Origin: Haliotis cracherodii
Taxonomy: Eukaryota
Assembly (NCBI RefSeq): GCF_022045235.1
Contig: NW_027266275.1
Coordinates: 27,280,001-27,344,000 of the forward strand
Reading direction: 5' to 3'
Length of the DNA: 64,000 nt
Part shown: positions 20,575-62,349 of the stretch, piece by piece
Layout: each line of letters begins with the position of its first letter
Position numbering within the stretch: position 1 is the stretch's first letter
Made by a program: the position numbers and the translations under genes
Notes under the pieces: model-generated
Database searches by the model: none
Told to the model about the DNA's origin: nothing
Seen by the model: only the letters and a program-made list of their open reading frames with translations

Positions 20575-21550
20575 TTGCAATAGTCGAATGGTTATCTTGG
20601 CCCTAGTTAAATGGTCATCTTTGGAATAGTGAAAGGGTTATTTTTGGAAAAGCCAAACAGTTATCATTAGAATAGTCAAATGGTCATCTTTGGAATAGTC
20701 AAAGGGTTATCTTTGGAAAAGCCTAATAGTTACCGTTAGAATAGTCAAATGGTCATCTTTGGAATAGTCAAAGGGTTATCTTTGGAATAGTTAAAGGGTT
20801 ATCTTTGGAAAAGTCAAAGGGTTACCGTTATAATAGTCAAATGGTCATCTTTGGAATAGTCAAAGGGTTATCTTTGGAAAAGCCAAATAGTTAGCATTAG
20901 AATAGTCAAATGGTCATCTTTGAAATATCTAAAGGGTTATCTTTGGAATAGTCAAAGGGGTATCTTTGAAAAAGCCAAATAGCAGTAGAATGGTCATCTT
21001 TGAAATAGTCAAAGGGTTATCTTTGGAATAGTCAAAGGGTTATCTTTGGAAAAGTCAAAGGGTTACCGTTATAATAGTCAAATGGTCATCTTTGGAATAG
21101 TCAAAGGGTTATCTTTGGAAAAGCCAAATTGTTAGCATTAGAATAGTCAAATGGTCATCTTTGAAATAGTCAAAGGGTTATCTTTGGAATAGTCAAAGGG
21201 GTATCTTTGAAAAAGCCTAATAGTAATCATTAGAATAGTCAAATGGTCATCTTTGGAATAGTCAAAGGGTTATCTTTTGAAAAGCCAAATAGCAGTAGAA
21301 TAGTCAAATGGTCATCTTTGAAATAGTCAAAGGGTTATCTTTGGAAAAGCCTAACAGTTACGGTTAGAATAGTCAAATGGTCATCTTTGAAATAGTCAAA
21401 GGGTTATTTTTGGAAAAGTCAAATAGTTACCGATAGAATAGTCAAATGGTCATCTTTGAAATAGCCAAAGGGTCATCTTTGAAAGAGCCAAAGGGTCATC
21501 TTGGAATAGTCAAAGGGTTATCTTTGGAATAGTTATCGTTGGAATAGTCA
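20575..21550. repeat. 23-bp satellite with higher-order structure (TTTGGAATAGTCAAAGGGTTATC and variants)
   Basis: Three recurring monomer variants cycle in 69-bp or 92-bp blocks. Confidence 0.9.
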
Positions 21551-29800: not shown

Positions 29801-31978
29801 GTGGCTCAAACTCATATCTTTGACATATCTGTCTTCGATTGTTGCTCTTGAATATTGCAAATCTCACTGAATATGCACAGTTCATTCTATGTTATCTGAA
29901 GGACCTTTACGTGTCATGTTTAAAACTACACATGACTCCGAGGTGGGGTAAATATACATAGCAAAACCAACGTAATGGAAATATCAATACGGAGGTGGTT
30001 TTATGTATTATGTTGCAGACCCGCACAGGTAATGCGTATACTATTTTTTCACATACAAACGTCTCATATACAAATGAATAATTTATATTCTTTTCCGCCT
30101 TTAAAAATGTATTGCAAATGACTTCATCAAAATTGACACAGCTAACAAACATGTTTTAGATTTATACAAATCGATCTCTATATATATATATACATATACA
30201 TTCTATATAAAGTGAGGTCACCTGATCTTGTTTATTTTTCATTTTACTGTTATACCAAACATTGCATGATGGGGGATGAAAGCAACACACGAATGAATAA
30301 TACTTGTTATTCGTCCTTACAGGCTTATAACATAAGACATTATTGTTTTAACAAATAATACATATAATAAAGTTGACTCTTATTCAATATGAAATAACCA
30401 TGGCACGACAGATTAACTATAATAATATGAAAGATTCGAGTGTTTTTTTACTTTATTTACAGTTTCCCTCGACCGATGTTAATATATAATTTACTTGTAA
30501 TTACTGTTAATCTCAAAAACATATTGTCCAGTCATGGAGGGAGGTTTCGATTCCGAAAGACAAATTATCAATCTAGTATGGTTTAACCTTTATTATAAAC
30601 CTCACAAACGTAGTTAAGAAATAATTGCTACAGTTAATTACTTTATTTTCATCTATATGAATATGTTAATATTCACCATCTACATGATATTTACTTATAA
30701 GATTACACCTAATTAATTTGCAACACTGAGCTAAATTAAAATGCTTAGCATACTTCCATGGACTATACACCTGCCCCATCATGCATTGTTGTTTTTTGGT
30801 ACATTCTGTTGATATTTATGGAGAGGGCTTTTTATTTAATAATTTGTTCTGTTTTTCATAAATATGAAACAAAATGTAATAAACATTTACACATTAATTG
30901 TGAAATGGGTTCTGAAATGCTAAAACCTTTCGCAATTTGAATATCATATTCAGCAAGCGTTAAACCAGGAATATATATCGTGATCTCTCCCCTCATGTAT
31001 GTGTAAATATACTACCAACAAAATGTTAAGTTCCACCCGATGCTTTCCTGGTACTGTAGTTAACTGTCATGGTATGGCAGATTAACTATAGTGATAGGAA
31101 AGGAACGGGTGGTCCCCAACTCCTTTTTGGTAACTTTTTTGGTAGTATAGAACACTTTTCAATAAACATTCTCTCTATATATATTGTCTTTAAACAATGA
31201 ACAAGAAACCAACGATGTCCCATATACATCATATAATAGTAAACTCCCAATACACCCGTCACACAGTACAAACACGGTGTTTGTGATGAGTTAGGTAGGC
31301 GCTATACTACAGGCGAGAAGCACCATACAGTACCGACACGCTCAGTGGGACGACTCACAGAGTTACCATACGTAGCATGGAACAAAAAGGATTCAACGCG
31401 CAGATGGGTCAGTCAGGCTTGCACTGGCAGCCGTACTTCTAGTTTCGTATTGATATGTCGAGTGGTTACGGAGTATCACGATGTATCGGTGAATCGGCCC
31501 ATCCGGAATTGACAGTACATAATTACTCATGCATTAAAACGCGCATACACACATGTAAGAATTTGCTATATATGATACATGTTGAGTGTTACCCATGGCT
31601 CATTGTCATTGACAGAAGCTGGATGACCACGAAGCTGCTGGACTTGACGACATCGGACTGATCCAGCGTCACGCCCATTGCGCATCACACACACCAGACA
31701 GGTCCTGTGGACATTAAACCAAAACGTGTCGGAAATACATTTAATACATGCATGACTCATCATATGACCTGCAGAACCGGATACCGAATTTTAACAAAAC
31801 TCACTGACTTGGTTGATGCTACTTCTTATCTCATTGCGATCTAGTGTGTGTTGTTTTACGCCGCAGTCAGTACAATACCAACTATATTACATGCGCTGAA
31901 AACAGTGCATGATTTAGTTGCCGAAGTGCACTGGCCAGGAGGACTTGTTAACAAAAGATGTTGCGAGCCCTCATCATA

Positions 31979-31990
31979 GTGTGTGTGTGT

Positions 31991-32021
<31 letters not shown>

Positions 32022-32082
32022 GGGGGGGGAAGAGAAAGGAAAGGGGGAGGAAAGGGGGGGGAGGGGGGGGGGCGGGGGGGGG
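31979..32082 (+). repeat. (GT)n microsatellite followed by a poly-G/purine tract
   Basis: About (GT)13, then ~25 G and further G-runs. Confidence 0.9.
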
Positions 32083-32764
32083 AGAGACCATAACGCGAAA
32101 CTGCTTGGTTGCTTGGTACTATACGTTTCTCTGACGTTTGTGGTGGATCTGTCGCTTTCACACGCACGGCTAATAACGCATACATGTACAAACCCGTTTA
32201 GTTCCGGGTCAAAATAGGTCTTCAGCAAACCATGCGTGCCGTAACCATGCGTGCCCGTAAAGGCAATTATGCTTATCAAAAGAGGTGACTAACGGCTGTC
32301 ATATAGCTGGAATATTGCTGAGTGCGGCGTTAAACAACAAACAAACAACAACAAAAAAACGTCAGTCATGATAATCAGGGTACATCAAAATCCAATTTTA
32401 CTACTTTATGTGGTTTATGGATAAACAACGAAATAAAAACAAAACGACAACAGACTGTGGCATTAAATGACGCCTTTACTGACTTGATGAGTCGTAAAAA
32501 TACATATGTATGGACAAGAATTTTCAACTGGACAGTCGGGCCAACGGCACGGAAATGTTACTAGCCCTATTTAAAAGTCACTAGCATTTGGCTACCGGGC
32601 AAGCATCTTTTTGAAAACAGGCTGAAAATGATCCAGCCTGGGCCCGGCAGATAACTGGTTGACAGCGTGATCAACAGTCCACGTGACATGGTGACACAGT
32701 ATCTGATAGGTCGGACATTGTAACCATCCGCTTCCCAACATGCATGGGATGCTTGGGACATACT

Positions 32765-35700
32765 CTACTCCGGAATCCCCGCGGAGGTTGTTCTCATATA
32801 TCCTTCAGTTGTTTCAAATGCATTCACTGGTGAATGATAGGGAATTTACAAGCATTGTAACAGAAAACCCCTTTAACTCGATATAATAATGGCTAGAATG
32901 TGTTTTTACTAATAAAAACATATGTCTCCCCCTTCTTTCTTGAGACATTACTTCAAGTTGTTGTGTTTGCAAATCCGAAAAACAATAATATGCAAATTAT
33001 AGCCTGGAAATATAACGGTTTCATGCAGAAATATTCATCGCAAACATAGAAACAACGCTACTTATTTGAGACTTAGTCCAAATTGTTCCCCTGGAAACAC
33101 AACAAATTAGAAAAAATAAAATTGAAAAATATGAAAGGCAATACTTGAGCATGTAAGCCAAGCCAAGAGTTGTTTGAGATTAAGTCCAAATTGTTTCCAT
33201 GGAAACGTAACAAAACAAAATTAAGAAAACTTTCAAAATATCCAAAGTCACCAGTGAAAAGGATGAGCAATGCATAACCCAAGTTTCGTTGAAACATGTT
33301 GGGCAGTTCAAGATATGGCACGGACACGAACGTACTAATCTATACGCTTGTTTAAAACAATACTGACCGTGGTGTTCAGTGTTGGTTTCCTGGACGCCCA
33401 CGAGTGGCACATCCTCTTCGTCCAAGTCTTCCTTCTCGCGGGGGTTACGGGAAGGTTGACATGCTGGGACGAACAGCCACATGAAGCCCACAACACTCAC
33501 AACACACAACATACAGCCCAGGGCGATGACGATGATGGCTGTCGTGCTCAGTGGTGGGGTGACTGGAAGCAACATACCAGCGTTGTGTGTACATGTATAT
33601 TATCATGTAGGCTCATTTAAAATGGGTTGTTTTCCACTGATATAAATATATACACAACGAAAAGGTAAACACCGCTTTACTATGTATTTTCCATATAAAA
33701 TAGTCAATTTGAAAATCTTATCGTTTTGAAATTCTTTACAAAACACATATTTATTTATTTTTTAAATGTGTCATGCACAATTGGTTTTTTTTACAGAACT
33801 CAAACATATTTTGCCACTGTTGTTTGTTTGTTTGGTGTTTGATGTTTAACGCCGCACTCAGCAATATTTTAGCTATATGACGGCGGTTTGAAAATAGTCG
33901 AGTCCGGATCAGACAATCTAGTGGTTGACATCATGTACGTCGATCTACGCACTTGGGATACGATGACATGCATCAACCAAGTCAGCGAGCCTGACCACCC
34001 GAACCTTAGATGATTATGTTATCTTTTCTCATCATCCGACAAGAGTTGGGGAAGTGTTCCAACTAGATGATGTGTATTCACTATAACTGACATGTTACCT
34101 TCCATCCCTGGGCTGGTTGTTGTCGTGGTCGGTGCTGACGTGGTTGTCTGGCAGTATGCTGAGCAGGGCTGGGGTATCGCTTCGTACCCTACCCAGGGGC
34201 ACAGTTGAACACAGCTATCGCACCGGGACAGCGCCGTGTCGAAGTATAGCCCATACTGACACTGCTCAGTGGGGACTGCAAGTCAAAGATCAAGCGTCAC
34301 GCCGCAATACAACTGACTTTCTGTTCCTACTACTAATAGTCTCCTTATATAGTTTACGGTGTGGAATTTATAAGGCCTATTTTAAACATAAATGCAAATT
34401 TACATTCACCAAAGTTCTGAGAGTAATTTAAACTCTTTGTAGGGAATATAATTTACTGGGTAGAAGAAGCATACATCAAACAAGAGAATGCTTTATTTGG
34501 ATAAAGTTATCTGGATAAATTTCAAATTTAATCAGATTTTAATGTCTCTCGTTTGAGTGAAAGATCCAACGTCCCCAAAAAACATTTTATGGCCTAAATA
34601 GTTATCATATCTATGACCATATGCATGTGATGTGGGTGAATATTGTCTAATGCCGTTGACAGCAATGCTCCATCTATGTCGTGTCGGACTGTAAATCATC
34701 ACGTATGGACATGGCAAAACAGTGATTAAAAGCAGATAGATAATCACATTCGTCAGTAAGGTCACAAACATCGAACTCCGGGGACCAGTGCTACCCCGGA
34801 ATCCCCACATGGACTTAACATCAGATACCGGCGTACGTTTACATGTTATAAACACACATATTCATTAATGGGTCTTAACAAAATTTGTACCCCTTTTGGT
34901 CCTGTTGAATAAACAAAATTATAACTTAAAAATTCCAACTTTTAGTGATTTAACAAGAAACATCTAAACTTAACAAGTAGTTGGGTAAATTATGACAATA
35001 CAAAGAAACATAATTTTTGTCATATTTTAAATACACCGGAGAAACAGTAGAAATTTATTGTCCTTGGTGTAACCATTATACTTACCGATTATTTGCAGAA
35101 ATAAAAAATATATACAATATTTCTTTCACCGTATTATTGTTACACTAATATTTTACCTCTGCCTAGAAAAGAAAAAAAATCTAACTTTTAATATCACCAC
35201 GTTTTAAAACCTGGATCATCACTCTTTGTGGGAAATGAAGAGAAATATTTATCATTTTCTTTTCTCTGTGTACCCACACATTGCCAAAATGATCGATATA
35301 ATTTCAATATTCTTTATTTATTGAAAATGTTCTTTGTAAATCATGGTATGCAATGTGCCTTAACCTGAATCATTGTCATGTACCCATGTCGGAATCGAAC
35401 TCGGGTCTTCAGCGTGACGAGCGAAAGCTTTAACCACCAGGCTCTCCGACCGCCCCGTTACACCAAAGACAAAACCATTACTCATAACGACTTTTCTTTC
35501 ACATCACAATAGTTTATCAGAAGGAAATGATGCACAATATTTGGTGTTGCATATTTGCAATGGCAATTGACTTTTTTGTTTCACAAAGTTTTCGTTGAAG
35601 TTAATACTGCTGATTTGAGGTAACACCAAGGACATATTAAGTAACACCAAAGACAATTAGTGATTATAAAGGGACCTAAGTGAGGGTGTTTTCATAAATT

Positions 35701-37329
35701 TAAGTGTTAATTATGAGTTAAGAGTTGTAATGACAAAGGCACAAGACATGTTTTACCCTTTAACACTAACTTCAAAATTATTACTTGCTGACTTGTGGTA
35801 ACACCAAGGACATATTTAGTAACACCAAAGACACTTAGCTTCATCTAACTAAAGTCAGAATGTTTTAATAAAACACAAATATAAGTGTTAATATGATTAA
35901 AGAGTTTTAATTTCAATGTCACAAGACATTGCCCATTCTATGTTAATAATTGCTGACTTGTGGTAACACCAAGGACATTTAGCTCCATCTAACCAGATGT
36001 CAGAGTGTTTTAATAACAATACAAATTTAAGAGTTAATAGGATTAAAGAGTTTTAATTTCAATGTCACAAGACGTTGCCCATTCTATGTTAATAATTGCT
36101 GACTTGTGGTAACACCAAGGACATTTGACATTACATCATTATTAAGTAATACCAAAGACATTTTGTCATGATTTAGGTAACATCAAGGACAGTAACACCT
36201 TTTATCATGAAATAAAAATACAATTGACTGCTCACTGTACAGTAGCCGACAACATTCATTACCAGTGCATTTAACTCTTCTATTATGCATGTAAGGATGT
36301 TTTGAAAATGAAATAGTTTTCTTTGTAACACGGTTACACCAAAGACATGGGCATTACATATAGTGATGCTTGGTGTTGCCTTTTGTTCCAGTTTAAATAA
36401 CGTTTACTTCTGTTGACTCAAAAGAAATTCTCCGTGAAAGAGAGAAATTGATGTGATACTGGAACATTCATTTACCTTCTGTCTACATAAAGATGGATAA
36501 CTCTTACACCTAACTAAACAAATGGTAACACCAAGGACAGAAACATTTTGGACAGGCAGGCTTTGCTTATTTTTCATTATTTAAAGACAGAAACATAGAG
36601 GAAACTGATGTTTATTTTAAAGATTCTAATCACATTAGTAAAATAACGACATAATAACTCGTGTATATGACACAAAATATGAAATATGTTCACTGAAAAA
36701 TGCGTTCGGTGTCTATTGACAGTGGTATTTCAATAATTCAGACTATATACCACTCCACCACAAGTAAATAAAGCATAAATAATATTTTATTTTGGTTCCA
36801 CATTGAAGGGATATTAGGGATGGAAGTTAAGGGCTATCTCAAACTTTATTTAAGATAGAGATTACTGCCATAAAAAGGGTACATAATTTGATAATGACCC
36901 TCATATAAAATGCAGAACAATAGTATGGAATGGAAAATAAGAAAAAACTTGTTTATTTTGTCTTCTTACTTCTCAAATGACCCGATAGACCACAGGCCTT
37001 AGCGTCTTGTGTTCGGGGCCAAAGAGAAACTAGGGAATTCCATAATACTGCATTAGATTTAACTGCGCAGTTCGTGTTTTTCATTTAATCAATATATTTT
37101 AATGTATGGATCTGTAATATGATCACCATATCCCGAGTTTGACATGTTTTCATTTACCTATCCAATCTTTACATTTAAGATAATCTAGTTCTACGTCAAG
37201 ATCACGAGGATTGAATGACTTTACGTGTAAGACAAGAAAAGAGCTCTTACCGCCTTCGACATTGACAAGCGTTGTGAAAAACACAGAAGTTACGTAAAGA
37301 TAAACAATATTCCACTCTAAATTCGTCAT
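32765..37329 (-). CDS. TNFR-like gene C: BCMA/Grindelwald-type single-CRD type I membrane receptor, 170 aa, 4 coding exons
   Basis: Exon 37329-37251 encodes MTNLEWNIVYLYVTSVFFTTLVNVEG (signal peptide; donor GTAAGA). Exon 34275-34099 encodes VPTEQCQYGLYFDTALSRCDSCVQLCPWVGYEAIPQPCSAYCQTTTSAPTTTTTSPGME (CRD plus Thr-rich stalk; donor GTAACA). Exon 33562-33368 encodes TM AIIVIALGCMLCVVSVVGFMWLFV and tail ...PREKEDLDEEDVPLVGVQETNTEHH (donor GTCAGT). Exon 32826-32765 encodes VNAFETTEGYMRTTSAGIPE*. All junctions are GT-AG, phase 1 and in frame. Confidence 0.85.
33825..34005 (-). mobile_element. SINE S1 (truncated) in intron 2 of gene C
   Basis: Matches the 3' part of the S1 consensus. Confidence 0.75.
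34868..36902. mobile_element. ~2-kb non-autonomous DNA transposon (possibly Sola-like) in intron 1 of gene C
   Basis: Imperfect ~30-bp TIRs (GGGTCTTAACAAAATTTGTACCCCTTTT and AAAAAGGGTACATAATTTGATAATGACCC), and more than 10 internal GTAACACCAA[GA]GACA motifs. Confidence 0.55.
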
Positions 37330-38828: not shown

Positions 38829-40654
38829 TACACTACATGTATCATGACCTTTTTTCCCTAATGGCTTTGATGCTAATCACGCCTTTGTTTATGGGTTTTA
38901 GTTAACATAAGTAATATGAACATGATTATATAGTCTGGCCCCCTTCATCAACATAACTTGGTTTCGGAAATGAAGTCTCTATCCCCATCACCACATCACA
39001 GAATGTCTCTCGTTCATTAAACGGGTTCCATTGTTGGTACGCGACGCAAGCTTAGCGTTTTTAGCCAACAGAGGACGGTAAAACAATAGTAAAAATCTGT
39101 ACCATATCCTCTTATAGCTGTGCATGCGTAACATCCATAGCGTTGTTCCAAATGCAAATATTCATGGAGACATGCGTTCACCTCTAAAGTTAGTTTTGGC
39201 CGACAATAATTACAACAAACTGCTCTGCTAGTGTTAATTTTGTTGCGAGCACTTTTACTTCACAAACAAACTTAACGTAATCCTCTATTTATTTCATTCG
39301 ATACCGAGGACCAATGAATGCTATGTTTAGTGTCGTCCAATCGAAGCCTATGACAAATCGGCCTCCGCCTGTCTAGACAGGCGACCAGTCAACTTGCTCA
39401 GGCGCAGGAACACTATCAAATGGCTCTTCTAAACGCTTAAGTAATGCCGATGCGACGTTAAATTTAACTCACTCACTCATTCAAAACGATATTTAGGCAC
39501 GGATCAAATTAGAAACCGCGGCCTCGTACACGCGTGCTCAAGATACGTTTAGTCGAATGAATGTTATAGATTAAAATTTAAAAAGATCTTTCCTTGGTAC
39601 ATGAATTATAAGTATTAGAAGTCTGTATGCTACCAGGCGTTACACGTTGGGTCTAAGAGGGCACACAAGTCTTGTACTGGTGATACGGCCGCTTGTGTCA
39701 ATCGTAAAGATGCTGGAAATTTGGCTGGAGATTTTTATTTTTTTTATTGAGCCTGAATAAGGAAAACACTTGCAGCAATGTCATTTTTGTGGCAATTTCT
39801 TTTTTTTTCCATAGCGTAAAGCATAATTATTTTTTTCAAGAATATCGGACTATTTTTAATATTGTGTCATTCGAACCTGACTCAAAACGAAGCCATGGTG
39901 AATGGGTCTGGAATATAGTGTAAAAGAGTTAACTAATGGAGGTATGATCCACGACACTACTCATTTGCTGCCTTGTGATTCTTGGTCTCGGTAAATAACA
40001 ACAAACGGGACATTGTTTGATAGAAAATTTATTTGCACACTTAAAAACAATGTAACCAATACAATATTAAGTAGCAAAGGTAACAACAGTCATAATATAA
40101 TTAGCCACGAATGAACTCAACTAGTTGTACCAAATCATGTATTGCCAGCAACCACGAATGTGGAATATATGCATTTAATTTAATCATTAAAAAAAACATT
40201 CCAGATGAACACATATAGGCAAACCCAACTAGCCATATTCCACAATGAAATCAGCATAAGGCCGGTCCACATGCAGCCCAAAATTCGCATCCGTGTTTAT
40301 AGATCCCAAATAGATCTATTGTCACTGGTCTTGGTGTCTGTATGTTTGTTTATAGTAACGATGGTGTACATAAAACAAACAAGAATACTATATGTATGAC
40401 AAGCGTTATTTTTAAATGACACCTACAAGGGCGGTGGCGACAGACAAGCGGTACAAACGTTGTCCGGGTTCAATTTCCCACATGGGTACAATATCTGAAG
40501 CTTATTTCTGGCCGCACCCCCATCCCCTACATGAACAATAAGTAGAAAAATGAGCCATTGCTCTTAAAATGTGATCGTCAACCAAGTCGTTGTAGACGTC
40601 CATCTGGGAGTCGGGAAGGCGTCACTGCTGTCCCCGCCTCCATCTGGGACTTGC

Positions 40655-42549
40655 CTACACAGCCGTGGTAGCGGTCACCGTCGCCGAAGTCACCTCTACA
40701 ACATGAACGTCAGAGCACCGTCAAAACGGAAATTCTTTCTGAACTTATCACTTCAATTTTACAAATAATGTCAGTTTATCTTTTTAATGTATTTGAAAAT
40801 GTCCCTCTGTACGTTCTTCAACACAGAGAGTGAAGGCAGGCGATATTTGACAATAGTGTTCTTGTTGAAGAGTAGCAATCATAAAACACTTCATATTGTA
40901 CTTCAGTTTTACCAGTTTTCAATTATGATATATTTCCTTTTATTGTGTATTTGTATTTATTCACCTGGTGAATTCTCTTGAACGCCTCGTTTTAAAAGCA
41001 TCGGCCTCCCCTCCAGTGTGATCTGCTTATGTTGTCTGGGTCGACGGTATTTCCACCAGAACCATATGGTGGTTCCAGTAGTAGCGACAGCAGCCACACA
41101 GACAATCGTTATTAGTGCTATGGCAGTCAGAGATATCCCCTCAGTTTTTCTACGTGGTCCTACTTCTGGTGGAATTGTTGCTGAAGCAAATTGTAATCTT
41201 ACATCAATAACTCCAATAGTTACGTAAACTATATTAATAAACTGTTGTTACTTATCGACCTGTTGATCACAGATTAACAAAACATTGTCACATGGCCGCT
41301 GAATGTGTAAATATATTTGAAAAAGAACACACCTATACAGCAGGATTGGATATGCCTTATATCACCTAGGAGTGTACAGAAGATATAACCCAGTAAAGAA
41401 CATACAGTTCCCATTAATTTCGCGCGGATAAACGAATATCTAGATTAACGAATTCTGCCTACGGAGTACTCTCTTGACATATTCAGACGTTTCAAACATC
41501 GTACTGTTGACTGCACTACTGATGATGCATTAAGTATACCAAACGTACATATGTAGCTACTCACTCGTGCTTGACCTACGTCCATCTTGGCCTCTGGTTC
41601 GAGTGCAGTAATCACGACACTGGTCAGGGGGCACTTCCGCCGGTACTCGGTCACAGTGAGGACCGCAGAGGTCACAGTTCAGGGTGACGTCGTCATAGTA
41701 ACGATCTTCTGGGCAGTTGTGCTTGTCCGGTGACCTCTTCGCGCAATAGGCAGTGCAAGACGCAGGAGGCTGAACCAGTGGTGCTCGGTCACAGTGGGGC
41801 ATGCAGTCATCGCAGTGTTCCGTCACGTCGTCATAGTAACGACCTTCCTGACATTTGTCTTCTTGACCTGGTCTCCGAGTCTTTAGTCCTTGACCTGAAT
41901 ATGTAATTTGGTAAATGTGAAAAATAGACAAATCAGTATATTTTATTTTGATATGAGAGCGGCTGGGGAGGGAATAGGGGGCGCAGTTGGTGTTTAACGT
42001 TGTTAAAAATTAAAAACAGATTAGTTCTCGCTACGTAAAAAGAAAACTGACTTGCGCGATAACCACGACAAACAATTATCGGACAGGAGTTATCTTTTGA
42101 TTGCCGCTAGGTGGTACTACGTACCTAGACATCAAAGCGAAAGTAGAAACTGGCAATTCCCGATTAAGGTAGGACGGGACACTCATTGCCTGTTTGCTTT
42201 AAATAAAATATACAGACTGAATTCATCCACAAATTGTATAAAAGGTACAGTCAAAGATATTCGAAATTAGTCTGTGAATACGTCATCTTGTATTTCCGAA
42301 ATGGTGATTACAAAGAGCAGGAAGTCTAATTAAGAGTATCTACCTGCAAAGAAGTATATTTTTCCATATTTAAAGCAACATCTTTCGATTTGTTTTATCT
42401 TGATAGCTGTTCAGACACCTTTTCGAAAGCCGAAGGATAAGGTTACCTGTACCTGTAGGGATATTTCCGGCTTTTAATGGCCTGGCCGAAACATGGTAGA
42501 CTGTCATCACCACGAACAAAACCATTTTCAATGACTTCCTCGTCGTCAT
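40655..42549 (-). CDS. TNFR-like gene B: TACI-like two-CRD type I membrane receptor, ~229 aa, 4 coding exons
   Basis: Exon 42549-42447 encodes MTTRKSLKMVLFVVMTVYHVSA|RPLKAGNIPTGT (signal peptide; an alternative donor would end the exon at 42453). Exon 41894-41565 has two CRDs, CQEGRYYDDVTEHCDDCMPHCDRAPLVQPPASCTAYC and CPEDRYYDDVTLNCDLCGPHCDRVPAEVPPDQCRDYC (donor GTGAGT). Exon 41180-40965 encodes TM ISLTAIALITIVCVAAVATTGTTIWFWW, then KYRR and ...KRGVQENSP (donor GTGAAT). Exon 40695-40655 encodes EVTSATVTATTAV*. All junctions are phase 1. Minus-strand AATAAA at 40033-40028. Confidence 0.88.
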
Positions 42550-43679
42550 CTTGGTGTTGTTTGAATGATTCACAATTTGATACTATAATGAATACAATAC
42601 GCCGAGCACTGCCTACAGTTATGATGAATCGTCTGGAGTAAGTGATGAAACATGAAAGCTTTCTCGAAACGTCGAAAGGGATCTATTTTTGACATGACTC
42701 TACAATTATAAATAGAACATGGGAAATCCGGTCAGATGTGACAGTCACCCATTACATCATTGACTCTGCATTTCTAACCCCACCCCAGCCCCTAAATATG
42801 TTTGTCAACTCGTACAAAAGGGGAGATTGAGTGCGTGAAGATTGTGTTACGCCGCAGTCGGAGATGTTCCAGCTGTATCAGGGCGGCCCGTACCTGAACG
42901 GTTCTGGGCCCGTCAGTCGGGTTGTTGACAGCATGAGCTGACCCGTATATGAAGATCTGGCTTTTGGCTGGGATAGCACCTGCCAAATGTTTTCGCTCCA
43001 GTATCCGTTTATACGTTTACTTCGCTATTAAATACATGCTATGACGAAAGCTCGAGGTACAGGCGCCCCTCGAGTCAATCGTCGACGATGGCATGTATTC
43101 ATATTATTAAAAAATGTGTTTCAAAATCAAAGAAGATCCACGGTTGGCACACGACCTTTGGATGAAAACGAGACCCAATGAATATGGACATAGTGTGTTT
43201 CTTGTCTACGGGAAGTAGTCATCGCGAGAGAAAGCTAAAAGACAGCTAGTGTCCATACACGATTAATCATCAGGAGTTCACACATTTATCATGTAAGGGT
43301 GTGTGTTCTCGATGCAATAAAACAATCCAATGAAGCACAACAGGAAATACTTTCAAGCTCCAAATGTCTTTTTTTTGCAATGCCTTCTTTCTCAATAAAA
43401 AATTGAATAACGTTCCCAGTATGTTTAGATGAGGGGATTCCAATGTGTCTCCGAAAAATAGAAAAGGCGTCACCTTAAAAAATTGTTGTGGTGACAGACA
43501 TTAACAGTGAGTGAGTGAGTTGGGTTGAGCGCCACAGTGAACTTTATTTCGGTTTGTGGGCATTTGAATATCCCCTATTGGCACCAACGTTCTGTAAACC
43601 CAAATATTCCGATTACAAATTTATGAACCAGAAAAACTCGACAGATTCCAGTTTTTCCCTGCATCGTTCACGGGTTCTT

Positions 43680-43974: not shown

Positions 43975-45470
43975 TTATCGTTCAGGACGCATGGTACACT
44001 CGGGTTATAATTCAGGACACGTGGTACAGGGTATAGGCCAAGGCACATGGTACAGGGGATAGTTCAGGACACGTGGTACAGTCAGGGTTTAGTCCAGGAC
44101 ACGTGGTCCAATCAGTGTATAGTCCAGGACAGGTGGTACAGTCAGGGTATAGTCCAGGACACGTGGTACTGTCGAGGTATAGTCCAGGACACGTTGTACA
44201 GTCAGGGCATAGTCCAGGACACATGGTCTAGTCAGGGTATAGTCCAGGACACACGGTACAGTCGGGTATAGTCCAGGACACATGGTACAGTCAGGGTATA
44301 GTCCAGGACACATGGTACAGTCAGGGTATGGTCCAGGACACATGGTCCAGTCAGGGTATAGTCCAGGACACATGGTTCAGTCAGGGTATAGTCCAGGACA
44401 CATGGTACAGTCAGGGTATAGTCCAGGACACATGGTACAGTCAGGGTATAGTCCAGGACACATGGTACACTCGGGTATAGTCCAGGACACATGGTACAGT
44501 CAGGGTATAGTCCAGGAAACATGGTCCAGTCAGGGTATAGTCCAGGACACATGGTCCAGTCAGGGTATAGTCCAGGACACATGGTACAGTCAGGGTATAG
44601 TCCAGGACACACGGTACACTCGGGTATAGTCCAGGACACGTGGTACAGTCAGGGCATAGTCAAGGACACACGGTACACTCGGGTATAGTCCAGGACACAT
44701 GGTACAGTCAGGGTATAGTCCAGGACACATGGTACACTCGGGTATAGTCCAGGACACATGGTACAGTCAGGGTATAGTCCAGGAAACATGGTCCAGTCAG
44801 GGTATGGTCCAGGACACACGGTACACTCGGGTATAGTCCAGGACACATGGTACAGTCAGGGCATAGTCCAGGACACACGGTACACTCGGGTATAGTCCAG
44901 GACACATGGTACAGTCAGGGTATAGTCAAGGACACATGGTCCAGTCAGGGTATAGTCCAGGACATATGGTCCAGTCAGGGTATAGTCCAGGACACGTGGT
45001 ACAGTCAGGGTATAGTCCAGGACACATGGTACAGTCAGGGTATAGTCCAGGACACATGGTCCAGTCAGGGTATAGTCCAGGACACATGGTAGAGTCAGGG
45101 TATAGTCCAGGACGCTTGATACAGTCAGGGTATAGTCCAGGACACTTGATACAGTCAGGGTATAGTCTGGGACACATTGTACAGTCAGGGTATAGTCCAG
45201 GACACTTGATACAGTCAGGGTATAGTCCAGGACACTTGATACAGTCAGGGTATAGTCTGGGACACTTGATACAGTCAGGGTATAGTCCAGGACACACGGT
45301 ACACTCGGGATATAGTTCAGGACAGGTGGTCCAGTCAGGGTATAGTCCAGGACACATGGTCCAGTCAGGGTATAGTCCAGGACACTTGGTACAGTCAGGG
45401 TATAGTCCAGGACACATGGTACAGTCAGGGTATAGTCCAGGACACATGGTACAGTCAGGGCATAGTCCAG
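43975..45470. repeat. 29/30-bp minisatellite (CAGGGTATAGTCCAGGACACATGGTACAGT), ~50 units
   Basis: Direct tandem repeats with interspersed 29-bp CGGG...TACACT variants. It accounts for the many overlapping ORFs in this region. Confidence 0.95.
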
Positions 45471-46743
45471 TATTGTGACACTTTCCATTCGCCAGTAGAT
45501 TTACACTTGTATGTAAAGTGCACACATGTTTATAGGTGTTAGCTGAATGTTTTTGTTCACATATGTTTACAATAGCAGGTATATATGTATCATTGCCCTC
45601 AGTGCTAATTTGCACGTAATGTGTAGTCAGACGATTCTGCGTAGTCGTGGTGACAGAAGCGGGCGTAAAATGTGGACTTTAGCACAAGCTGTGACAAATT
45701 ATCTCGATATCAACTTACAATAGTATTAGATGTGATAATGAAACATTATTGCCTGTGCACTAACTTCACTATAGGTTATGTACGCACGACAATATAGGTT
45801 GTGCGCCTTGCGACAAACTAGAATGTTCACCTTCAGCAATAAAGGTTGTGTATCTGCAACAATATGTACTATGCAGTATATGCGCAGTACAATATAGGTT
45901 GTGTAGCTACGTCAGCATAGGCTTTGACTACGGCTACAGAGGGTATACAATATACGATGTGCGATATATCGAACGTTTCTTGGATGTGCATGTGAGCAAG
46001 CATGCGTCAAAAGTTTATTTGTTGTTTTTTTAATTATAATTGAACATGAACTGAATTCAGCAAATGAATTTCCCAATGCTTCACTTTCTGCTTTGAGCTG
46101 ATAATAACTTGAATGCTCAAGATAAGAATTTGAATTTTCAAGATGAAAAATAATTATGTGGCCCATATGGGCTTCCGTACAAAATACGGAGATTAGCCTT
46201 TGTTTCAGTTGTCCCAGTAGTCGCCCGGATGTTGAATGCAAGACGATATAAACTGCAGATTTAAGCCCTCGGAGAGTCATTCGTTGCATCGCATTAACAT
46301 TTAAATTAATACTTGAAACATCGAAGTACAATGTAGGTAGATTAACGGAATTCAAGCATTGCAGTTCATTTGGCGGTAACAACAACAGTCTGATAAGCGA
46401 CGCCAAGGAAATAATACTATGCAGTCGTGATCCGAGCATCATGAAGTCAATATCCTAAGAAAGGTATATCCACCTCTTGCAGGTCACGTGGTATTCAACT
46501 CTCGCCAGAGACCGATAACACCATTTGCATGATATTGATTATAACATAAATGACCGTATAACCCGGGGAACAATAGTCGTCGCCATTTATGCAACAATAG
46601 CCCGTATATAATACCTATACGGCTGTAAGTAGCATATATGTACATTTATCTAAATCGATATGCGGCTTCGGGTTAGTGTTGTCACAGCGGAGGACGGACC
46701 GTAAGTCCTGTGGTTTTATCAGTGTAGCAGAAGAAGCGTCAAG

Positions 46744-47580
46744 ATGCCGTTCAGTTTGTTGAAGTTTTTTAAACTCCGTCAGGAGAAAGAGGACACCATG
46801 GCTGATCTCGATGCGGTGACCTCCGACATTGGGGAGATTAAAACAACTTCTTACAAACAGTTGGAGACCTCGGATACACCGCCCCCAGCTGCGCGCGGTG
46901 TTACTGATGCAGGCTGCAACAAAACAAGCGCTGAGGATCAAACAAACAACTACGTTCCTATCAGAAGATCGAGTACAAAGAAACGGACAGTTCCGTCCAT
47001 TTTGAAAGAAGATGTGTTCAAAACAGATGTTCCAGAAAAAAATGCAACGGCACCGGAAGCTGCTGGAATAGACAACAATTCAAAGAAAACACCGGACACA
47101 GACAAAACAGACGACAGTTCACTGAAAACTCCGGACACAAACAAAACAGACGACAGTTCACCGAAATCTCCCGACACAAACAAAACAGACGACAAATATC
47201 TTAAACCTCTGGACACGAACAAAACAGACAACTCACAGAAAACTCCAGAAACGGACAAAACAGAGGACAATTCACAGAAAACTTCGGACACGGACAAAAG
47301 TGAAAAACTAAAACATAAACAAAACGAAGCAAAGCTACAGAAGTGTAAGTCTAAAATACCCAAGTCGGTGTCATTTTCAAAGAATCTTATCCACGAGAAC
47401 GGTGCAGAAGACAACAGGCGCAAGGTTATCAGAAGATCCAGCACACGGACGAGAGCCATCCCCACCATTTTAAAAGCTGATTTTCTTAAAGGTGAGCAAC
47501 CTGGTCAGACGGAAGGACAAGAAAATGTTGGAAAGAGATTCTACTTCGGCTTCAAGGACAAAACAAAAGATCCTAACTGA
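46744..47580 (+). CDS. Intronless 278-aa low-complexity (K/D/T-rich) protein with candidate PP1-docking motifs (SILK, KSVSF)
   Basis: Longest non-satellite ORF in the window, with an ATG start and a TATA-like TATATAA near 46605. It contains about 6 degenerate KTPDTDKTDDSS repeats, a duplicated IRRSST-x4-[VI]P[ST]ILK-x-D-x-x-K block, and KSVSF at 47362-47376. Confidence 0.65.
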   Translation: MPFSLLKFFKLRQEKEDTMADLDAVTSDIGEIKTTSYKQLETSDTPPPAARGVTDAGCNKTSAEDQTNNYVPIRRSSTKKRTVPSILKEDVFKTDVPEKNATAPEAAGIDNNSKKTPDTDKTDDSSLKTPDTNKTDDSSPKSPDTNKTDDKYLKPLDTNKTDNSQKTPETDKTEDNSQKTSDTDKSEKLKHKQNEAKLQKCKSKIPKSVSFSKNLIHENGAEDNRRKVIRRSSTRTRAIPTILKADFLKGEQPGQTEGQENVGKRFYFGFKDKTKDPN

Positions 47581-54418: not shown

Positions 54419-54578
54419 NNNNNNNNNNNNNNNNNNNNNNNNNNNNNNNNNNNNNNNNNNNNNNNNNNNNNNNNNNNNNNNNNNNNNNNNNNNNNNNNNN
54501 NNNNNNNNNNNNNNNNNNNNNNNNNNNNNNNNNNNNNNNNNNNNNNNNNNNNNNNNNNNNNNNNNNNNNNNNNNNNNN
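54419..54578. other. Assembly gap (160 N)
   Basis: Run of N. Confidence 1.
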
Positions 54579-55964: not shown

Positions 55965-56470
55965 TCACCCAGGCATAAGCAAATGTTCAAATGACACACT
56001 GATACAGACTTGGGATGAAGTCTGTAGTTGCCATGGTGTATGTAACACGTACGTGCCATTCTCATCAGTTACTGTGCAACAACCTGTCATGTGAAAATCC
56101 TTTGTCCTCAGGAAGTCTATATATGTCTGGCTCACTTAGATGTTTTTGTGACCATTGACACTCTTTGGAAACATAGCAGCAGATTTCAGTAGTAACTTCA
56201 CGTAAAGGGAGCATAGTAATATACCACTAGTATCTGAGGAATGAATTGCTATTATGTGTGTTTGGTCTAGCGAATTACAATGGTTTAATGTGAAGGCCAA
56301 GATAACCTTTGGAATGATGGCGTGTGTTGAAACCTGACATTATGTAAGTTGAATTACCTCCCCTTGTCAACAAAGTACAACAGGCTGAATACATTGCTTG
56401 ACATCAATGAAAGGGAGTTTACACTTCCTGACAAATGGCATGGGTACCTTGTCATAACACTAATCTTAAA

Positions 56471-58533
56471 GCTCCTATATCTAGGGGTACCAGAGCTCCT
56501 ATATCTAGGGGTACCAGAGCTCCTATATCTAGGGGTACCAGAGCTCCTCTATCTAGGGGTACCAGAGCTCCTATATCTAGGGGTCCCAGAGCTCCTATAT
56601 CTAGGGGTACCAGAGCTCCTATATCTAGGGGTACCAGAGCTCCTATATCTAGGGGTCCCAGAGCTCCTATATCTAGGGGTACCAGAGCTCCTATATCTAG
56701 GGGTCCCAGAGCTCCTATATCTAGGGGTACCAGAGCTCCTATATCTAGGGGTACCAGAGCTCCTATATCTAGGGGTACCAGAGCTCCTCTATCTAGGGGT
56801 ACCAGAGCTCCTATATCTAGGGGTACCAGAGCTCCTATATCTAGGGGTACCAGAGCTCCTATATCTAGGGGTACCAGAGCTCCTATATCTAGGGGTACCA
56901 GAGCTCCTATATCTAGGGGTACCAGAGCTCCTATATCTAGGGGTACCAGAGCTCCTATATCTAGGGGTACCAGAGCTCCTATATCTAGGGGTACCAGAGC
57001 TCCTATATCTAGGGGTACCAGAGCTCCTATATCTAGGGGTACCAGAGCTCCTATATCTAGGGGTACCAGAGCTCCTATATCTAGGGGTACCAGAGCTCCT
57101 ATATCTAGGGGTACCAGAGCTCCTATATCTAGGGGTACCAGAGCTCCTATATCTAGGGGTACCAGAGCTCCTATATCTAGGGGTACCAGAGCTCCTATAT
57201 CTAGGGGTACCAGAGCTCCTATATCTAGGGGTACCAGAGCTCCTATATCTAGGGGTACCAGAGCTCCTATATCAAGGGGTACCAGAGCTCCTATATCTAG
57301 GGGTACCAGAGCTCCTATATCTAGGAGTACCAGAGCTCCTATATCTAGGGGTACCAGAGCTCCTATATCTAGGGGTACCAGAGCTCCTATATCAAGGGGT
57401 ACCAGAGCTCCTATATCTAGGGGTACCAGAGCTCCTATATCTAGGGGTACCAGAGCTCCTATATCTAGGGGTACCAGAGCTCCTATATCAAGGGGTACCA
57501 GAGCTCCTATATCTAGGGGTACCAGAGCTCCTATATCTAGGGGTACCAGAGCTCCTATATCTAGGGGTACCAGAGCTCCTATATCTAGGGGTACCAGAGC
57601 TCCTATATCAAGGGGTACCAGAGCTCCTATATCTAGGGGTACCAGAGCTCCTATATCTAGGGGTACCAGAGCTCCTATATCTAGGGGTACCAGAGCTCCT
57701 ATATCTAGGGGTACCAGAGCTCCTATATCTAGGGGTACCAGAGCTCCTATATCTAGGGGTACCAGAGCTCCTATATCAAGGGGTACCAGAGCTCCTATAT
57801 CTAGGGGTACCAGAGCTCCTATATCTAGGGGTACCAGAGCTCCTATATCTAGGGGTACCAGAGCTCCTATATCTAGGGGTACCAGAGCTCCTGTATCTAG
57901 GGGTACCAGAGCTCCTATATCTAGGGGTACCAGAGCTCCTATATCTAGGGGTACCAGAGCTCCTATATCTAGGGGTACCAGAGCTCCTATATCTAGGGGT
58001 CCCAGAGCTCCTCTATCTAGGGGTACCAGAGCTCCTATATCTAGGGGTACCAGAGCTCCTATATCTAGGGGTACCAGAGCTCCTATATCTAGGGGTACCA
58101 GAGCTCCTATATCTAGGGGTACCAGAGCTCCTATATCTAGGGGTACCAGAGCTCCTATATCTAGGGGTACCAGAGCTCCTATATCTAGGGGTACCAGAGC
58201 TCCTATATCTAGGGGTACCAGAGCTCCTATATCTAGGGGTACCAGAGCTCCTATATCTAGGGGTACCAGAGCTCCTATATCTAGGAGTACCAGAGCTCCT
58301 ATATCTAGGGGTACCAGAGCTCCTATATCTAGGAGTACCAGAGCTCCTATATCTAGGAGTACCAGAGCTCCTATATCTAGGGGTACCAGAGCTCCTCTAT
58401 CTAGGGGTACCAGAGCTCCTATATCTAGGGGTACCAGAGCTCCTATATCTAGGAGTACCAGAGCTCCTATATCTAGGGGTACCAGAGCTCCTATATCTAG
58501 GAGTACCAGAGCTCCTATATCTAGGGGTCCCAG
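56471..58533. repeat. 24-bp minisatellite (GAGCTCCTATATCTAGGGGTACCA), ~86 units
   Basis: Near-perfect tandem array that produces the 700+ aa repeat ORFs in three frames. Confidence 0.97.
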
Positions 58534-59892
58534 ATAAAAAAGTGCAGCAGCAAACCTCAAAGAACCCTGGACCCCAAAATTTCTAACACTGAGGAAATCA
58601 GACTGCAACTATTTCTTGAATTAGCCATTAATTGGCTGACATGGGAACAAAAAATAAATATATTCAAAGACACTCCATTATGACAATAGCTTAACAAAAA
58701 TATAATTTTGTATATATTAAGTACATTCATAAAATCCTGTACACCCTGAGTGTAGCACATGTAAAAAAATTATCATTACAATTTCAAAAGCTACAAAGAT
58801 ATGATTTGGTGGCATATTTCAATTTAACAATTAGATCTATTTTGTGACTGCCACTGGACTTTAAGTATGGTAATTCAAAGAACTATCTGGATAACTTTTG
58901 ACATGACAAGTAAGTGACGTCACAACACACATTATGATGTCATGATGTCTGTACAAGCCAGCCCCCTCGTATAGGTCTTTACGACATGAAGACTGGCCAA
59001 TCAGATGGCTACATTTTTCAACAAGTAATGTGAGAAATGGGGTTTAACGTTGTGTCCAAGTTTATTGCACTTATATAGCGTGTGTGCATGCATCCCAACC
59101 CAAGATGTGACTGTCAGTGGATTGTGTTGAGTGAGCGATTGTTCTTTCACGCTGTCAGCAGAATTCCAGCTAAATCATGAATATTTATAGGTAATGATTC
59201 TGGTCCAGGAAAACCAATCATTAGTGGTAGTGGGAGACTAGCATACAGTCTAGGAAAACTTTCATTACACACTTCAATTCTCGCCTCTAATTATTAAAGA
59301 CTTGCTTTTTTATATTCTAGATTGACTTGGTTTCATAAAATACAGATATTCCAGTCATGGTTCAGGACTACAGTAGTGGGGGAGCACGGACTGCTTGATG
59401 TTTCGGTGTGATGACACACAATCAGCCACGTCACGCCTTTTGATCACCCTATCCCCTCTTTAAGAGGCGTGGCCTAAATGTAAATGTCCGATTAGGATTT
59501 TAAATTTTCCGGACCCCTGCCCTCTTATCATGCGCCTCTTACAACAAGTAAGGGACGCTTGGGGCTCTCCCCATGGACTCCCAACAGGGTCAGGGCTGAG
59601 TTGAACACCACTGTCAGCAATGTTTAGCTATGAGCATAGTGGCTTGCACATTATCAACTGGGTTGGGATCTAACCAGTGATTGATGGTGTGAGCATGAAA
59701 CCACATATTGGTGTGTATGCTACAGTCAGCCAGGCCACGGCCTCAGGATTGTCTCCCCTATTGACCTTTCATCCAATCACTGTCCCTTCTTAGAGGACAT
59801 TGTCACCAACCAATTTTCATTTTAGTCGCCTCTTACAACAATCATGGGTTACTGGAACCTATTCTGCCCCAGAGGGCAAGCAGATTGCTGGT

Positions 59893-62349
59893 TTAATTCC
59901 CAGAATAGTCTTCGCCAGTCAAGAGATGATCACCAGCGCGACTTCCTGTAAAAGACAATTCCAAACATTAGTTTCAAAACATGAACATCATGATTATTTC
60001 TACAGCCAAACATTCTTAAACATCATGATTGTCAGCCATGTTTGTAGGTTCTCTATATTTTAGTTGTCATCATGGAAGAGTTCAACAAACATTTGGTGGG
60101 TGGAAACAAATCATTACGTGAGTTAAATACAAAGATGGTCATGAACAGGATCACAAAATTATTTGAGTACCATCTTGATGTGATGCAAACAAACCATTAT
60201 GTTTGTCAATAAACAGTTGGGTCATGTTTGTTTGTTTGTTGTTTAACGACGCACTCAGCAATATTCCAGCTATATGATGGCGGTCTGTAAATAATCGAGT
60301 CTGGACCAGACAATCCAGTGACTGATATCTTGAGCATCGATCCACACAATTGGAATTCGATGACATGCAATCAACCAAGTCGGCCAGTCTGACCACCAGA
60401 TCCTCTTAGACAAGCATAGTCGCCTTTTATGGCAAGAATTGGTTGCTGAGGACCTATTCTACCCCGGATCTTCACAGGTGAAGTTGGGCCATGAATAGGG
60501 TCACAAAGTTATTATACAGTAGTAGCAGTTCAGTGGGTTGCAAACAAACCAATTTGTCACATATTGCCCCTACCTATACACAGCTCAGCGAAGCCCATAT
60601 CATCCTGCTGCACAGGTGTGTTGTCACTGGGCTGGGCAACAAGTGCAGTCGCCTGGGCAACAAGTGTAGTTGCTTGGACAGCATTGGTAGAAGTCTGATC
60701 TGGGCGTCGGAACCTCCTCCAGAGAAACACCAGTACTATGACCATGACCACCATCACACCACAGGAGATGGACACTAGCATGGAGACATTCACCGGGGTA
60801 GATGCTGGTCCGTCCTGCCCCGCATGTCCAGCTTGGAAGAACTCTAGACAAGACATAACAATAAATGTACACAGTATTTTTTATTTTTTTTGTTTAACGC
60901 CGCACTCAGCAATATTCCAGCTATATGAAGGCAGTCTGTATATAATCAAGTCTGGACCAGACAATCAAGTGATTGACATCATGAGCATCGATCCACGCAA
61001 TTGGGATACGATGACATGCATCAACCAAGTCAGCGAGCCTGACCACCTGTTAGTCACCTCTTACGACAAGCATAGTCGCCTTTTACGGCAAGCATGGGTT
61101 GCTGAAGACTATTCAGGTATTGTACACAGTATAAACAGTGACTTAACATAAGTGAAACTGTAAATAAGGTAACCATACTCTGTTCATACTGCACTGCTAG
61201 GTTATTTTCAGATGGGATGATTCTAAATTCATATTAAATTGCCTGTGCTATTAAAGATACATGTATATGTGGACAATATTTCAAACTCTGGTGAGCTTAA
61301 CAAATTTGAAATACTCTCTAAATATATTTCCAACACATTTTCTGATCAAAATATCTTGTCACATACATGAGAAACAGTATTTTCCAGCAAATGGGCATTT
61401 TATAACCTTGATTTGACATTATGTTTTAGATGGAATCACTACCGACCTGGACTGAGTAAGATCATCTTCCCGAGGCAAGGGAGATAACTGACTATAAAAA
61501 GTCCAGTTTCCACCCTTGCCCAAATAGGCTGGAATTATGGAGTTATATTTTGGCTGAACTAATGAGACTATGCATAGTCCAATCAAAATTTTTCAACGAA
61601 ATTAACATCTGTTTCGTAAACTGCAGTGCAGTTTTTGGTCGATTGCAGGATTTGCAAAGCATGTGTACCAACAAACTTAGCATCAACAGATATTTTCCCA
61701 ATCATTTCATGTTTTGAATCAAGGTGCTCGTGTGATTTGACGCACTTCGTGTAGTAAAAACCCATTTTATTACAATATAGATCTTGATTATCAACCAGAC
61801 CATTTCACTGGGCGATGCCGTTTTAGTTGAAGCCAATGTAAGTGACATGAGAGGTGAAATCTGATTGGTCAATGGGAGGGACATAGAAGGGACATAACTC
61901 ATAATTGCCACTGGTGGCGCTACAGTCAAGCCCAGAAATTCCAGCCTTGTTTGGCAAGGGTAGAAACTGGACTTTAACAGTCAGTTAACTCCCTTGCCTT
62001 GGGAAGATGGCAAAGATGTGTTCTCGTTGGAATATTAGTTTCCATATTGAGGCATGTTTAAATATTCTGATCTTAAATCTTTGCAGTGAACATGCTGCAG
62101 GTTCATTGGGAGGCATACAATTACCTCTACATACAACTCATTTTACAATGTAAACAGACACACATTTTATATCTTTGACAGGGCAAATGTGTTAACAGTT
62201 ATGGCAACAGTGTTGGATGAAGTACCTGGACAAAACTTGTTGCAGTCAGAGTTAGGATCCTTCAAGTACTCCCAATAGCAGATCTCATTACACCCCTGGC
62301 ATCTGCTAACAGCCTTGTCATAGTACTGGCCACTTTGACAGTGCTTCAT
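59893..62349 (-). CDS. TNFR-like gene A: BCMA-like single-CRD receptor, probably type III (no signal peptide seen), ~148 aa
   Basis: Exon 62349-62226 encodes MKHCQSGQYYDKAVSRCQGCNEICYWEYLKDPNSDCNKFCP (donor GTACTT). Exon 60843-60574 encodes EFFQAG..., TM MLVSISCGVMVVMVIVLVFLW, RRFRR and ...TPVQQDDMGFAELCI (donor GTAGGG). Exon 59945-59893 encodes GSRAGDHLLTGEDYSGN*. Phase-1 junctions are in frame. The last exon and the true N-terminus are less certain. Confidence 0.8.
60227..60478 (-). mobile_element. SINE S1 in last intron of gene A
   Basis: Full-length copy with TSD-like AGTTGGG[TC]CATG flanks. Confidence 0.8.
60890..61112 (-). mobile_element. SINE S1 in intron of gene A
   Basis: Matches the S1 consensus. 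Confidence 0.8.
61463..62009. mobile_element. Non-autonomous DNA transposon with ~70-bp TIRs in intron of gene A
   Basis: CATCTTCCCGAGGCAAGGGAGATAACTGAC...GTCAGTTAACTCCCTTGCCTTGGGAAGATG. Confidence 0.75.

Follow-up and report, generated by a model that had tools for sequence, protein, structure and literature searches.

Several small receptors of the TNF receptor class are close enough to the locus described here to serve as references. In BCMA (TNFRSF17), TACI (TNFRSF13B) and Fn14 (TNFRSF12A), the ligand is bound by a hairpin (PMC8024323). The short form of TACI, which lacks cysteine-rich domain 1 (CRD1), binds BAFF and APRIL better (PMC6176016), and since binding is weaker with the extra domain, more domains need not mean more avidity. 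A title cited in PMC8024323 states that TACI uses a single domain for high-affinity binding. The tail of Drosophila Grindelwald is linked to TRAF and to polarity proteins, namely Traf2 and Veli/Lin-7 (PMC8024323). Grindelwald-like (grnd-like) homologs have been reported in molluscs and annelids and are described as single-domain proteins (bioRxiv 2024.07.27.603686); the main text of that preprint makes no mention of BCMA or TACI. According to section 11 of another preprint, four human TNF receptors with one or two domains, which are left unnamed there, could not be traced to any ancestor among invertebrates (bioRxiv 2021.12.26.474206). The literature searched, from which subscription papers were mostly absent, contained no account of molluscan BCMA-type receptors with several domains, and the supplements of bioRxiv 2024.07.27.603686 may include such proteins.

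The window, a stretch of 64,000 nucleotides from the black abalone, Haliotis cracherodii, holds three related minus-strand genes, A, B (42549-40655) and C (Table 1). Gene B has four coding exons, which encode a leader, the ectodomain, the transmembrane segment with part of the tail, and the tail end. All three introns are GT-AG and of phase 1, with an AG acceptor and a GT donor bounding exon 2. The four exons joined give the RefSeq proteins P0004/P0006 exactly (RefSeq XP_071107139). Four of 24 runs (X3, X4, X5 and X12) were compared; they are RNA by presumption, and because they consist of contigs their depth ranks nothing. One X5 contig of 1252 nt spans the four exons, with GT-AG joints at the predicted places (40695/40965, 41180/41565 and 41892/42451). 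In runs X3 and X4, which come from other organisms, the greater part of exon 2 is uninterrupted, with 7 and 3 differing letters, respectively. The leader forms a helix (residues 4-22) in a single-sequence AlphaFold model, and the signal peptide was read from the sequence by eye rather than with a predictor. A single transmembrane helix follows the ectodomain and precedes a short tail (hydropathy; model helix 160-187). That model of the full protein has a pLDDT of only 52 and was left out of the fold comparison.

Table 1. Features of the window, with positions counted from its first nucleotide
Feature	Position	Strand	Support
Gene B exon 1, start codon and signal-peptide-like segment	42453..42549	-	exact match P0004/P0006; joint 41892/42451 in X5 contig
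Gene B exon 2, 330 nt (phase 1-1), with CRD1 and CRD2	41565..41894	-	RefSeq match, X5 contig
CRD1, six Cys first to last; beta-hairpin and two helices in model	41743..41853	-	
Linker between CRD1 and CRD2, 9 residues	41716..41742	-	
CRD2, first to sixth Cys; offset of 138 nt from CRD1	41605..41715	-	
Gene B exon 3 with end of the stalk, transmembrane helix (about 41136-41053) and basic stop-transfer	40965..41180	-	RefSeq match, X5 contig
G-V-Q-E motif in gene B exon 3	40986-40975	-	
Gene B exon 4, short C-terminal tail with T-A-V before the stop; PDZ-like end	40655..40695	-	RefSeq match, X5 contig
Gene A, single-domain paralog with signal peptide	31685..37329	-	exact match P0008
Gene A exons	37329-37251, 34275-34099, 33562-33368, 31704-31685	-	exact match P0008
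Gene C, single-domain paralog, annotated without signal peptide	59893..62349	-	exact match P0010
Gene C coding exons	62349-62226, 60843-60574, 59945-59893	-	exact match P0010
Tandem array, 37 nt x 13	19095-19565		
Tandem array, 23 nt x about 40	20572-21533		
Tandem array, 30 nt x 50	43976-45470		
Tandem array, 24 nt x 86 at 98%	56470-58534		

Tandem donors 6 nt apart (42447-42453) give isoforms X1 and X2 of gene B, the alternative donor at 42447 adding two residues in isoform X1. In the red abalone, isoform X1 has a different C-terminus, with loss of the PDZ-like end. Run X12, compared over 41025-41984 and 40525-42696, has a shallow contig that joins 41571 to 41878 (306 skipped, 2 letters between), a copy from which both domains are missing. 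The same run has deep contigs over exon 1 (20 other letters in 244) and over the tail exons, where the joint of exon 4 is altered; at 82% likeness they leave most of exon 2 uncovered, a gap that is by itself no evidence. The X12 contigs may derive from a B-like paralog with a different ectodomain and from a degenerate copy.

The preliminary description of this locus held that the two CRDs of gene B lie in one exon and are more alike than either is to those of genes A and C, and both observations stand. Exon 2 occupies precisely the interval it named (41894-41565) and is unbroken in the X5 contig, and the motif that it quoted (RYYDDVT..CD.C.PHCDR.P...PP..C..YC) is found. The two domains, B1 and B2, share the cysteine spacing C-x12-C-x2-C-x3-C-x11-C-x3-C, which recurs in genes A and C. 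They are identical at 23 of 37 residues (17 of them non-Cys) and at 73 of 111 nucleotides, compared with 10-14 residues and 42-56 nucleotides in the five remaining pairings of B1, B2 and the domains of A and C. When exon 2 is matched against itself, the best lag is 138 nt (95 of 192 identical), with the next best at 35%. B1 scored against B2 gives a BLOSUM value of 138; among 120 other non-TACI domains the mean is 58 (sd 14) and the highest value 88-89.

The repeat is old enough for its silent sites to be near saturation, as a dS of 1.43 indicates (dN 0.32; NG86), yet the seven-residue hairpin is identical in B1 and B2. Both domains are present in the ortholog of H. rufescens (34/37 and 35/37 identical to those of gene B), so the duplication predates the split between black and red abalone. 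Genes A and C are identical to their H. rubra orthologs (LOC124290508 and LOC124290512) at 24/37 and 28/37 residues; given similar rates, the duplication can be inferred to be roughly as old as the split from H. rubra. Orthologs of gene B were found only in H. cracherodii and H. rufescens (2 of 15 candidates; 2 of 146), a count that does not imply absence in other abalones.

The six-Cys domain with beta-hairpin and CXXCXXXC core that characterizes the BCMA/TACI fold is present in gene B (spacing 12-2-3-11-3). Pfam gives gene B 24.7 bits for BCMA-Tall_bind, under the cut-off of 27, and nearly as much (20.7) for the chitin-binding family CBM_14. CRD1 scores 21.8 bits for BCMA-Tall_bind and 18.6 bits for TACI-CRD2, both under cut-off, and CRD2 scores 15.8 bits for BCMA-Tall_bind, with no TACI-CRD2 match among those listed. 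Given that every Pfam match falls below cut-off, that CBM_14 scores close to BCMA, and that some vertebrate CRD receptors bind no TNF ligand (PMC6001812), gene B could be a membrane protein of another kind, an orphan serving in adhesion or pattern binding whose small cysteine knot is convergent, and no TNF receptor. This reading is improbable in the light of the following comparisons. A profile seeded with the window's genes retrieves ten TACI proteins and a protein annotated as Grindelwald. When 18 named molluscan proteins, with no vertebrate row among them, are made into a profile, it finds BCMA first in the PDB (9e-7), followed by TACI CRD2 (0.006) and Fn14 (0.016). An AlphaFold (AF2) model built on a 46-row alignment, of which 7 rows are TACI, has a pLDDT of 81 and shows hairpin, helix, helix, twice over. 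A fold search against 48,161 chains returned five at Z >= 2, all of them TNF receptors: BCMA twice (best match Z 5.3, rmsd 1.0, 35 aligned), TACI (4.1), Grindelwald (3.0) and Fn14 (2.0); such low Z scores are expected for 35-residue domains. Foldseek gave no match at E <= 0.001 (E-values were 0.06 or higher), though BCMA fills its top 11 rows. Look-alikes in the ESM Atlas were unnamed mollusc clusters first, then Fn14 (0.90) and TACI. The tails of the family are also enriched in TRAF-type motifs, as described below.

Out of the 1.84 billion searched, 96 representatives were retrieved by this first profile, whose only seeds were the genes of the window and a single ortholog from red abalone. 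Five of these without the family architecture (P0035, P0043, P0058, P0074 and P0096) were dropped, as was P0027 d3, a duplicate TACI domain of a fused record. Apart from the TACI proteins, identified as such by Pfam, there are 81 relatives: 49 have one domain, 23 two, 7 three and 1 four, and in 1 none was detected. P0098, in which no domain was found, is included in the count of 81 and absent from the trees. Taxa were looked up for 20 of the 96 matches, mostly picked for having several domains, and 18 of these could be assigned. Two-domain receptors occur in 8 further Haliotis clusters, several paralogs appearing to lie on one chromosome with gene B, and other multi-domain relatives come from Gigantopelta, Babylonia, Mercenaria, Potamilus and the nemertean Lineus. 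A hydrophobic leader is present in 30 of 31 multi-domain relatives by a crude hydrophobicity test. With the near-ortholog set aside, sibling domains are mutual best matches in 6 of 31: gene B, a pair of similar records of which one is from Gigantopelta, Potamilus, Lineus and one further record, which form five separate groups. In the remaining multi-domain relatives the sibling domains are old and unlike each other.

P0017 and P0022, a three-domain receptor of Gigantopelta and a record resembling it whose domains, numbering at least four, are nearly identical (38-39 of 40 alike), are a very recent repeat expansion in the family of gene B. A Mercenaria receptor and a similar record (P0032 and P0045) carry an extra small cysteine-bearing segment before each domain, with linkers of 37-40 residues. 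Fewer than 12 residues precede the first domain in 19 of 80 family members. Gene C is annotated in three Haliotis species as starting at the domain without a signal peptide, which would make it type III like BCMA; a phase-1 acceptor-like AG lies two bases before its ATG (window 62349-62400), so an upstream leader exon may have been missed.

A phylogeny of the individual domains bears directly on the relationship with TACI. B1 and B2 group together in the best trees (computed without BCMA, BAFF-R and Fn14) rather than being split among TACI d1 and d2, the outcome that would have refuted the preliminary description. Support for B1+B2 is 99/90 in a tree of 144 domains, in which the group contains one very long branch, the bootstrap is unsettled and the gene A domain falls inside TACI d2 on a long branch. 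A mixture-model tree of 42 of the 144 domains, drawn from 24 chosen proteins and including TACI d1/d2 and Grindelwald but leaving out BCMA, BAFF-R and Fn14, gives 99/97, with TACI d1+d2 as a group of their own (93/81). The two-domain layout could instead be common to gene B and TACI by descent, with B1 equal to d1 and B2 to d2. Pfam calls on gene B do resemble the domains of TACI, and forcing these pairings, although it costs 14 log-likelihood units, yields an AU p of 0.127 jointly (0.051 and 0.138 singly), which does not reject them, 37 columns having little power. Common descent is nonetheless barely plausible: B1 and B2 score 138 with each other, and neither exceeds 74 with any of 20 TACI domains; both score higher with TACI d1 (means 62 and 57) than with d2 (47 and 42), and B2 has no TACI-CRD2 match. 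As far as the best evidence goes, the pair in gene B is its own and independent of TACI, and also of the other abalone two-domain genes unless conversion has occurred.

The preliminary description further proposed that the split between one and two CRDs arose here independently of vertebrates, as a convergent architecture. Independence from TACI is retained in the best trees; the event is, however, not singular. Among the relatives 31 of 81 have two to four domains, a share that is overstated because multi-domain proteins score higher, and together with the recurrent sibling pairs this makes the split a family-wide habit rather than a singular convergence. The likeness to the two domains of TACI is best explained as one of several parallel gains in domain number in the family of gene B. 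A change in avidity, which the preliminary description also considered possible, has the precedent of TACI pointing in the opposite direction.

On sequence comparison, the domains of gene B are best read as a 138-nt tandem duplication inside the domain exon, independent of TACI. The duplication probably arose by unequal crossing-over, and would have occurred after gene B left its paralogs and before black and red abalone split. Two other routes to the same layout were weighed. In genes A and B the domain exon begins and ends in phase 1 and is thus symmetric, in gene C it ends in phase 1, and such exons duplicate easily; CRD1 of TACI, moreover, sits on its own exon (PMC6176016). A whole single-domain exon could therefore have been duplicated and the intron between the copies then lost. 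With 13 codons before CRD1 and 14 after CRD2, however, about 27 residues would be expected between the domains, whereas 9 are observed, so that an internal duplication fits better than a fused whole-exon copy. No GTRAG donor or pyrimidine-tract acceptor occurs inside exon 2 either, and duplication of the whole exon seems distinctly improbable.

Alternatively, gene B may descend from an older two-domain molluscan receptor, its layout being inherited and its repeats later homogenised by gene conversion. Two-domain receptors are common in Haliotis, as noted above, and many relatives have a linker of 8 residues, near the 9 of gene B. The B1/B2 alignment contains exact DNA runs of 18 and 13 nt, and a tree placing both B domains among other d1 domains is not rejected (AU p 0.11). 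On the other hand, identity at the synonymous sites of the repeats shows no significant patchiness (p 0.22 by a runs test, 0.19 for the longest run), nor does it exceed saturation, identical codons numbering 13 of 23 (p 0.08-0.21). The family cap, x-[DEG etc.]-[YF], follows 82 of 119 family domains and is absent after both B domains, and the linker of gene B lacks its [DE]-Y form. Before CRD1 and after CRD2 lie 9-codon spacers that, in exact 2x138 register, agree at 15 of 27 nt (p 0.005, post hoc), as is expected of a spacer-plus-domain unit; the middle spacer matches these two at 12 and 5 bases. Placing B1 and B2 apart, with the d1 and d2 domains of six other two-domain receptors of vetigastropods, as inheritance from them would require, is rejected (AU p 0.0065; p 0.30 in the control that omits B). 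Conversion of an inherited pair is thus unlikely. Duplication within the exon, as first suggested for this locus, is favoured over both of these routes without being proven. To the explanation as a whole, a type I small TNF receptor whose tandem-duplicated domains are a gain parallel to that of TACI, a probability of about 0.7 can be assigned.

In its layout, gene B would be a membrane receptor of type I, one of many paralogs in abalone, and would belong to the small TNF receptors whose domains have the BCMA/TACI fold. A putative signal peptide and the two domains are followed by a Ser/Thr/Pro stalk, a single transmembrane helix and a tail of 42 residues that has no death domain. Each domain is predicted to bind a trimeric abalone TNF-family ligand via its beta-hairpin, with D-x-V replacing D-x-L. 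That the seven hairpin residues are identical despite near-saturated synonymous sites suggests that both copies are kept binding-competent and that, with hairpins under purifying selection, they bind the same ligand. Ligand-driven clustering might then recruit TRAF through G-V-Q-E and lead to JNK or NF-kB. Of 76 family tails, 28 contain the TRAF-type motif [PSAT]x[QE]E, whereas shuffling gives 15.6 and none of 500 shuffles reaches the observed count. The tail of gene B has only G-V-Q-E, which is outside the canonical TRAF motif; a looser pattern that includes it, written after gene B had been seen, occurs in 19 of 76 against 1.9. The T-A-V end, which we take to be class I PDZ-like, may anchor the receptor by binding a PDZ protein, recalling the link of Grindelwald to Veli/Lin-7.

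The rest of the window contains repeats and open frames. Two near-identical open frames of 216 codons on the plus strand (12413-13060 and 17778-18425) have a charged, coiled-coil-like first half and lie in a local duplication; neither has a Pfam match. A plus-strand open frame of 291 codons (46705-47577) is built on a 39-nt repeat (6 copies) with a Lys/Thr/Asp-rich unit and likewise has no Pfam match. The 30-nt and 24-nt arrays of Table 1 form long repeat open frames and are probably non-coding minisatellites. At least two short interspersed repeat families (about 250 and 160 nt) have many copies across the window, e.g. 430-676, 2905-3169 and 7581-7741, and a run of 160 N occupies 54419-54578.

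The doubling in gene B is real and its own, and its origin is probably the one first proposed. As doublings are common among the mollusc relatives, gene B is a modest variant and no surprise, and as a single gene it carries little weight, domain number varying freely among TNF receptors and in its own family. The family is an entry point of more interest than the doubling. It provides candidate receptors for the many molluscan TNF ligands, and allows one to test when a second domain adds avidity and when it remains as a remnant, as in TACI. Human BCMA heads the matches of a profile made from molluscs alone, which suggests that receptors of the BCMA type have an old root in the Bilateria. A wider proposal, to which we would give slightly less than even odds, places gene B in a large lophotrochozoan family of TNF receptors, mostly unannotated, whose 1-5 domains have the BCMA fold. 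That family would be what corresponds in invertebrates to BCMA/TACI (perhaps also to BAFF-R and Fn14), small receptors whose origin has proved difficult to trace. The six-Cys domain would then have existed in the bilaterian ancestor and multiplied independently in abalones, other snails, bivalves, ribbon worms and vertebrates, and both copies in gene B would be full binding sites, making the receptor bivalent and able to cross-link trimers, unlike TACI.

Compared with the known receptors, gene B shares with TACI two tandem domains of BCMA/TACI fold, a single membrane pass and the absence of a death domain. The label "TACI-like" given to it earlier holds for domain count only, because signal peptide, exon layout, hairpin tip and linker all differ. 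TACI is a type III protein, with no leader in any of 10 N-termini inspected by eye, whereas exon 1 of gene B encodes a hydrophobic leader. CRD1 of TACI is on its own skippable exon 2 (PMC6176016), while both domains of gene B share one exon. The linker has 4 residues in 9 of 10 TACI rows and 9 in gene B, and d1 and d2 are identical at 9-16 residues in TACI, against 23 of 37 in gene B. The hairpin tip is D-x-L in 18 of 19 TACI tips read and D-D-V (D-x-V) in both B domains; at this position V is commonest in non-TACI domains (33 of 115) and L occurs in 3 of 115. BCMA, the best match in sequence and fold, has the same six-Cys domain of hairpin plus helices and no death domain, but it has one domain, is type III (PMC6001812) and carries a D-x-L tip (PMC8024323), and the 11-residue loop of gene B is about 3 residues longer. 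Fn14 is similarly a small single-pass type I receptor (it appears in the list of exceptions in PMC6001812); it has one domain and gives weak matches only (E 0.016; Z 2.0, rmsd 6.6). Grindelwald resembles gene B in its compact CRD with CXXCXXXC core and its short tail, and differs in having eight Cys in an X2-C2 layout (PMC8024323) against six per domain, the fold match being Z 3.0. The uncharacterised molluscan and nemertean receptors (RefSeq LOC models) have the same domain, a signal peptide and one helix, with 1-4 domains counted; in most of those with several domains d1 and d2 are old and unlike, whereas the pair in gene B is alike, with a Pro-rich second module. Gene B would therefore work like a receptor of the BCMA/Grindelwald class; it is not a TACI, and only superficially TACI-like.
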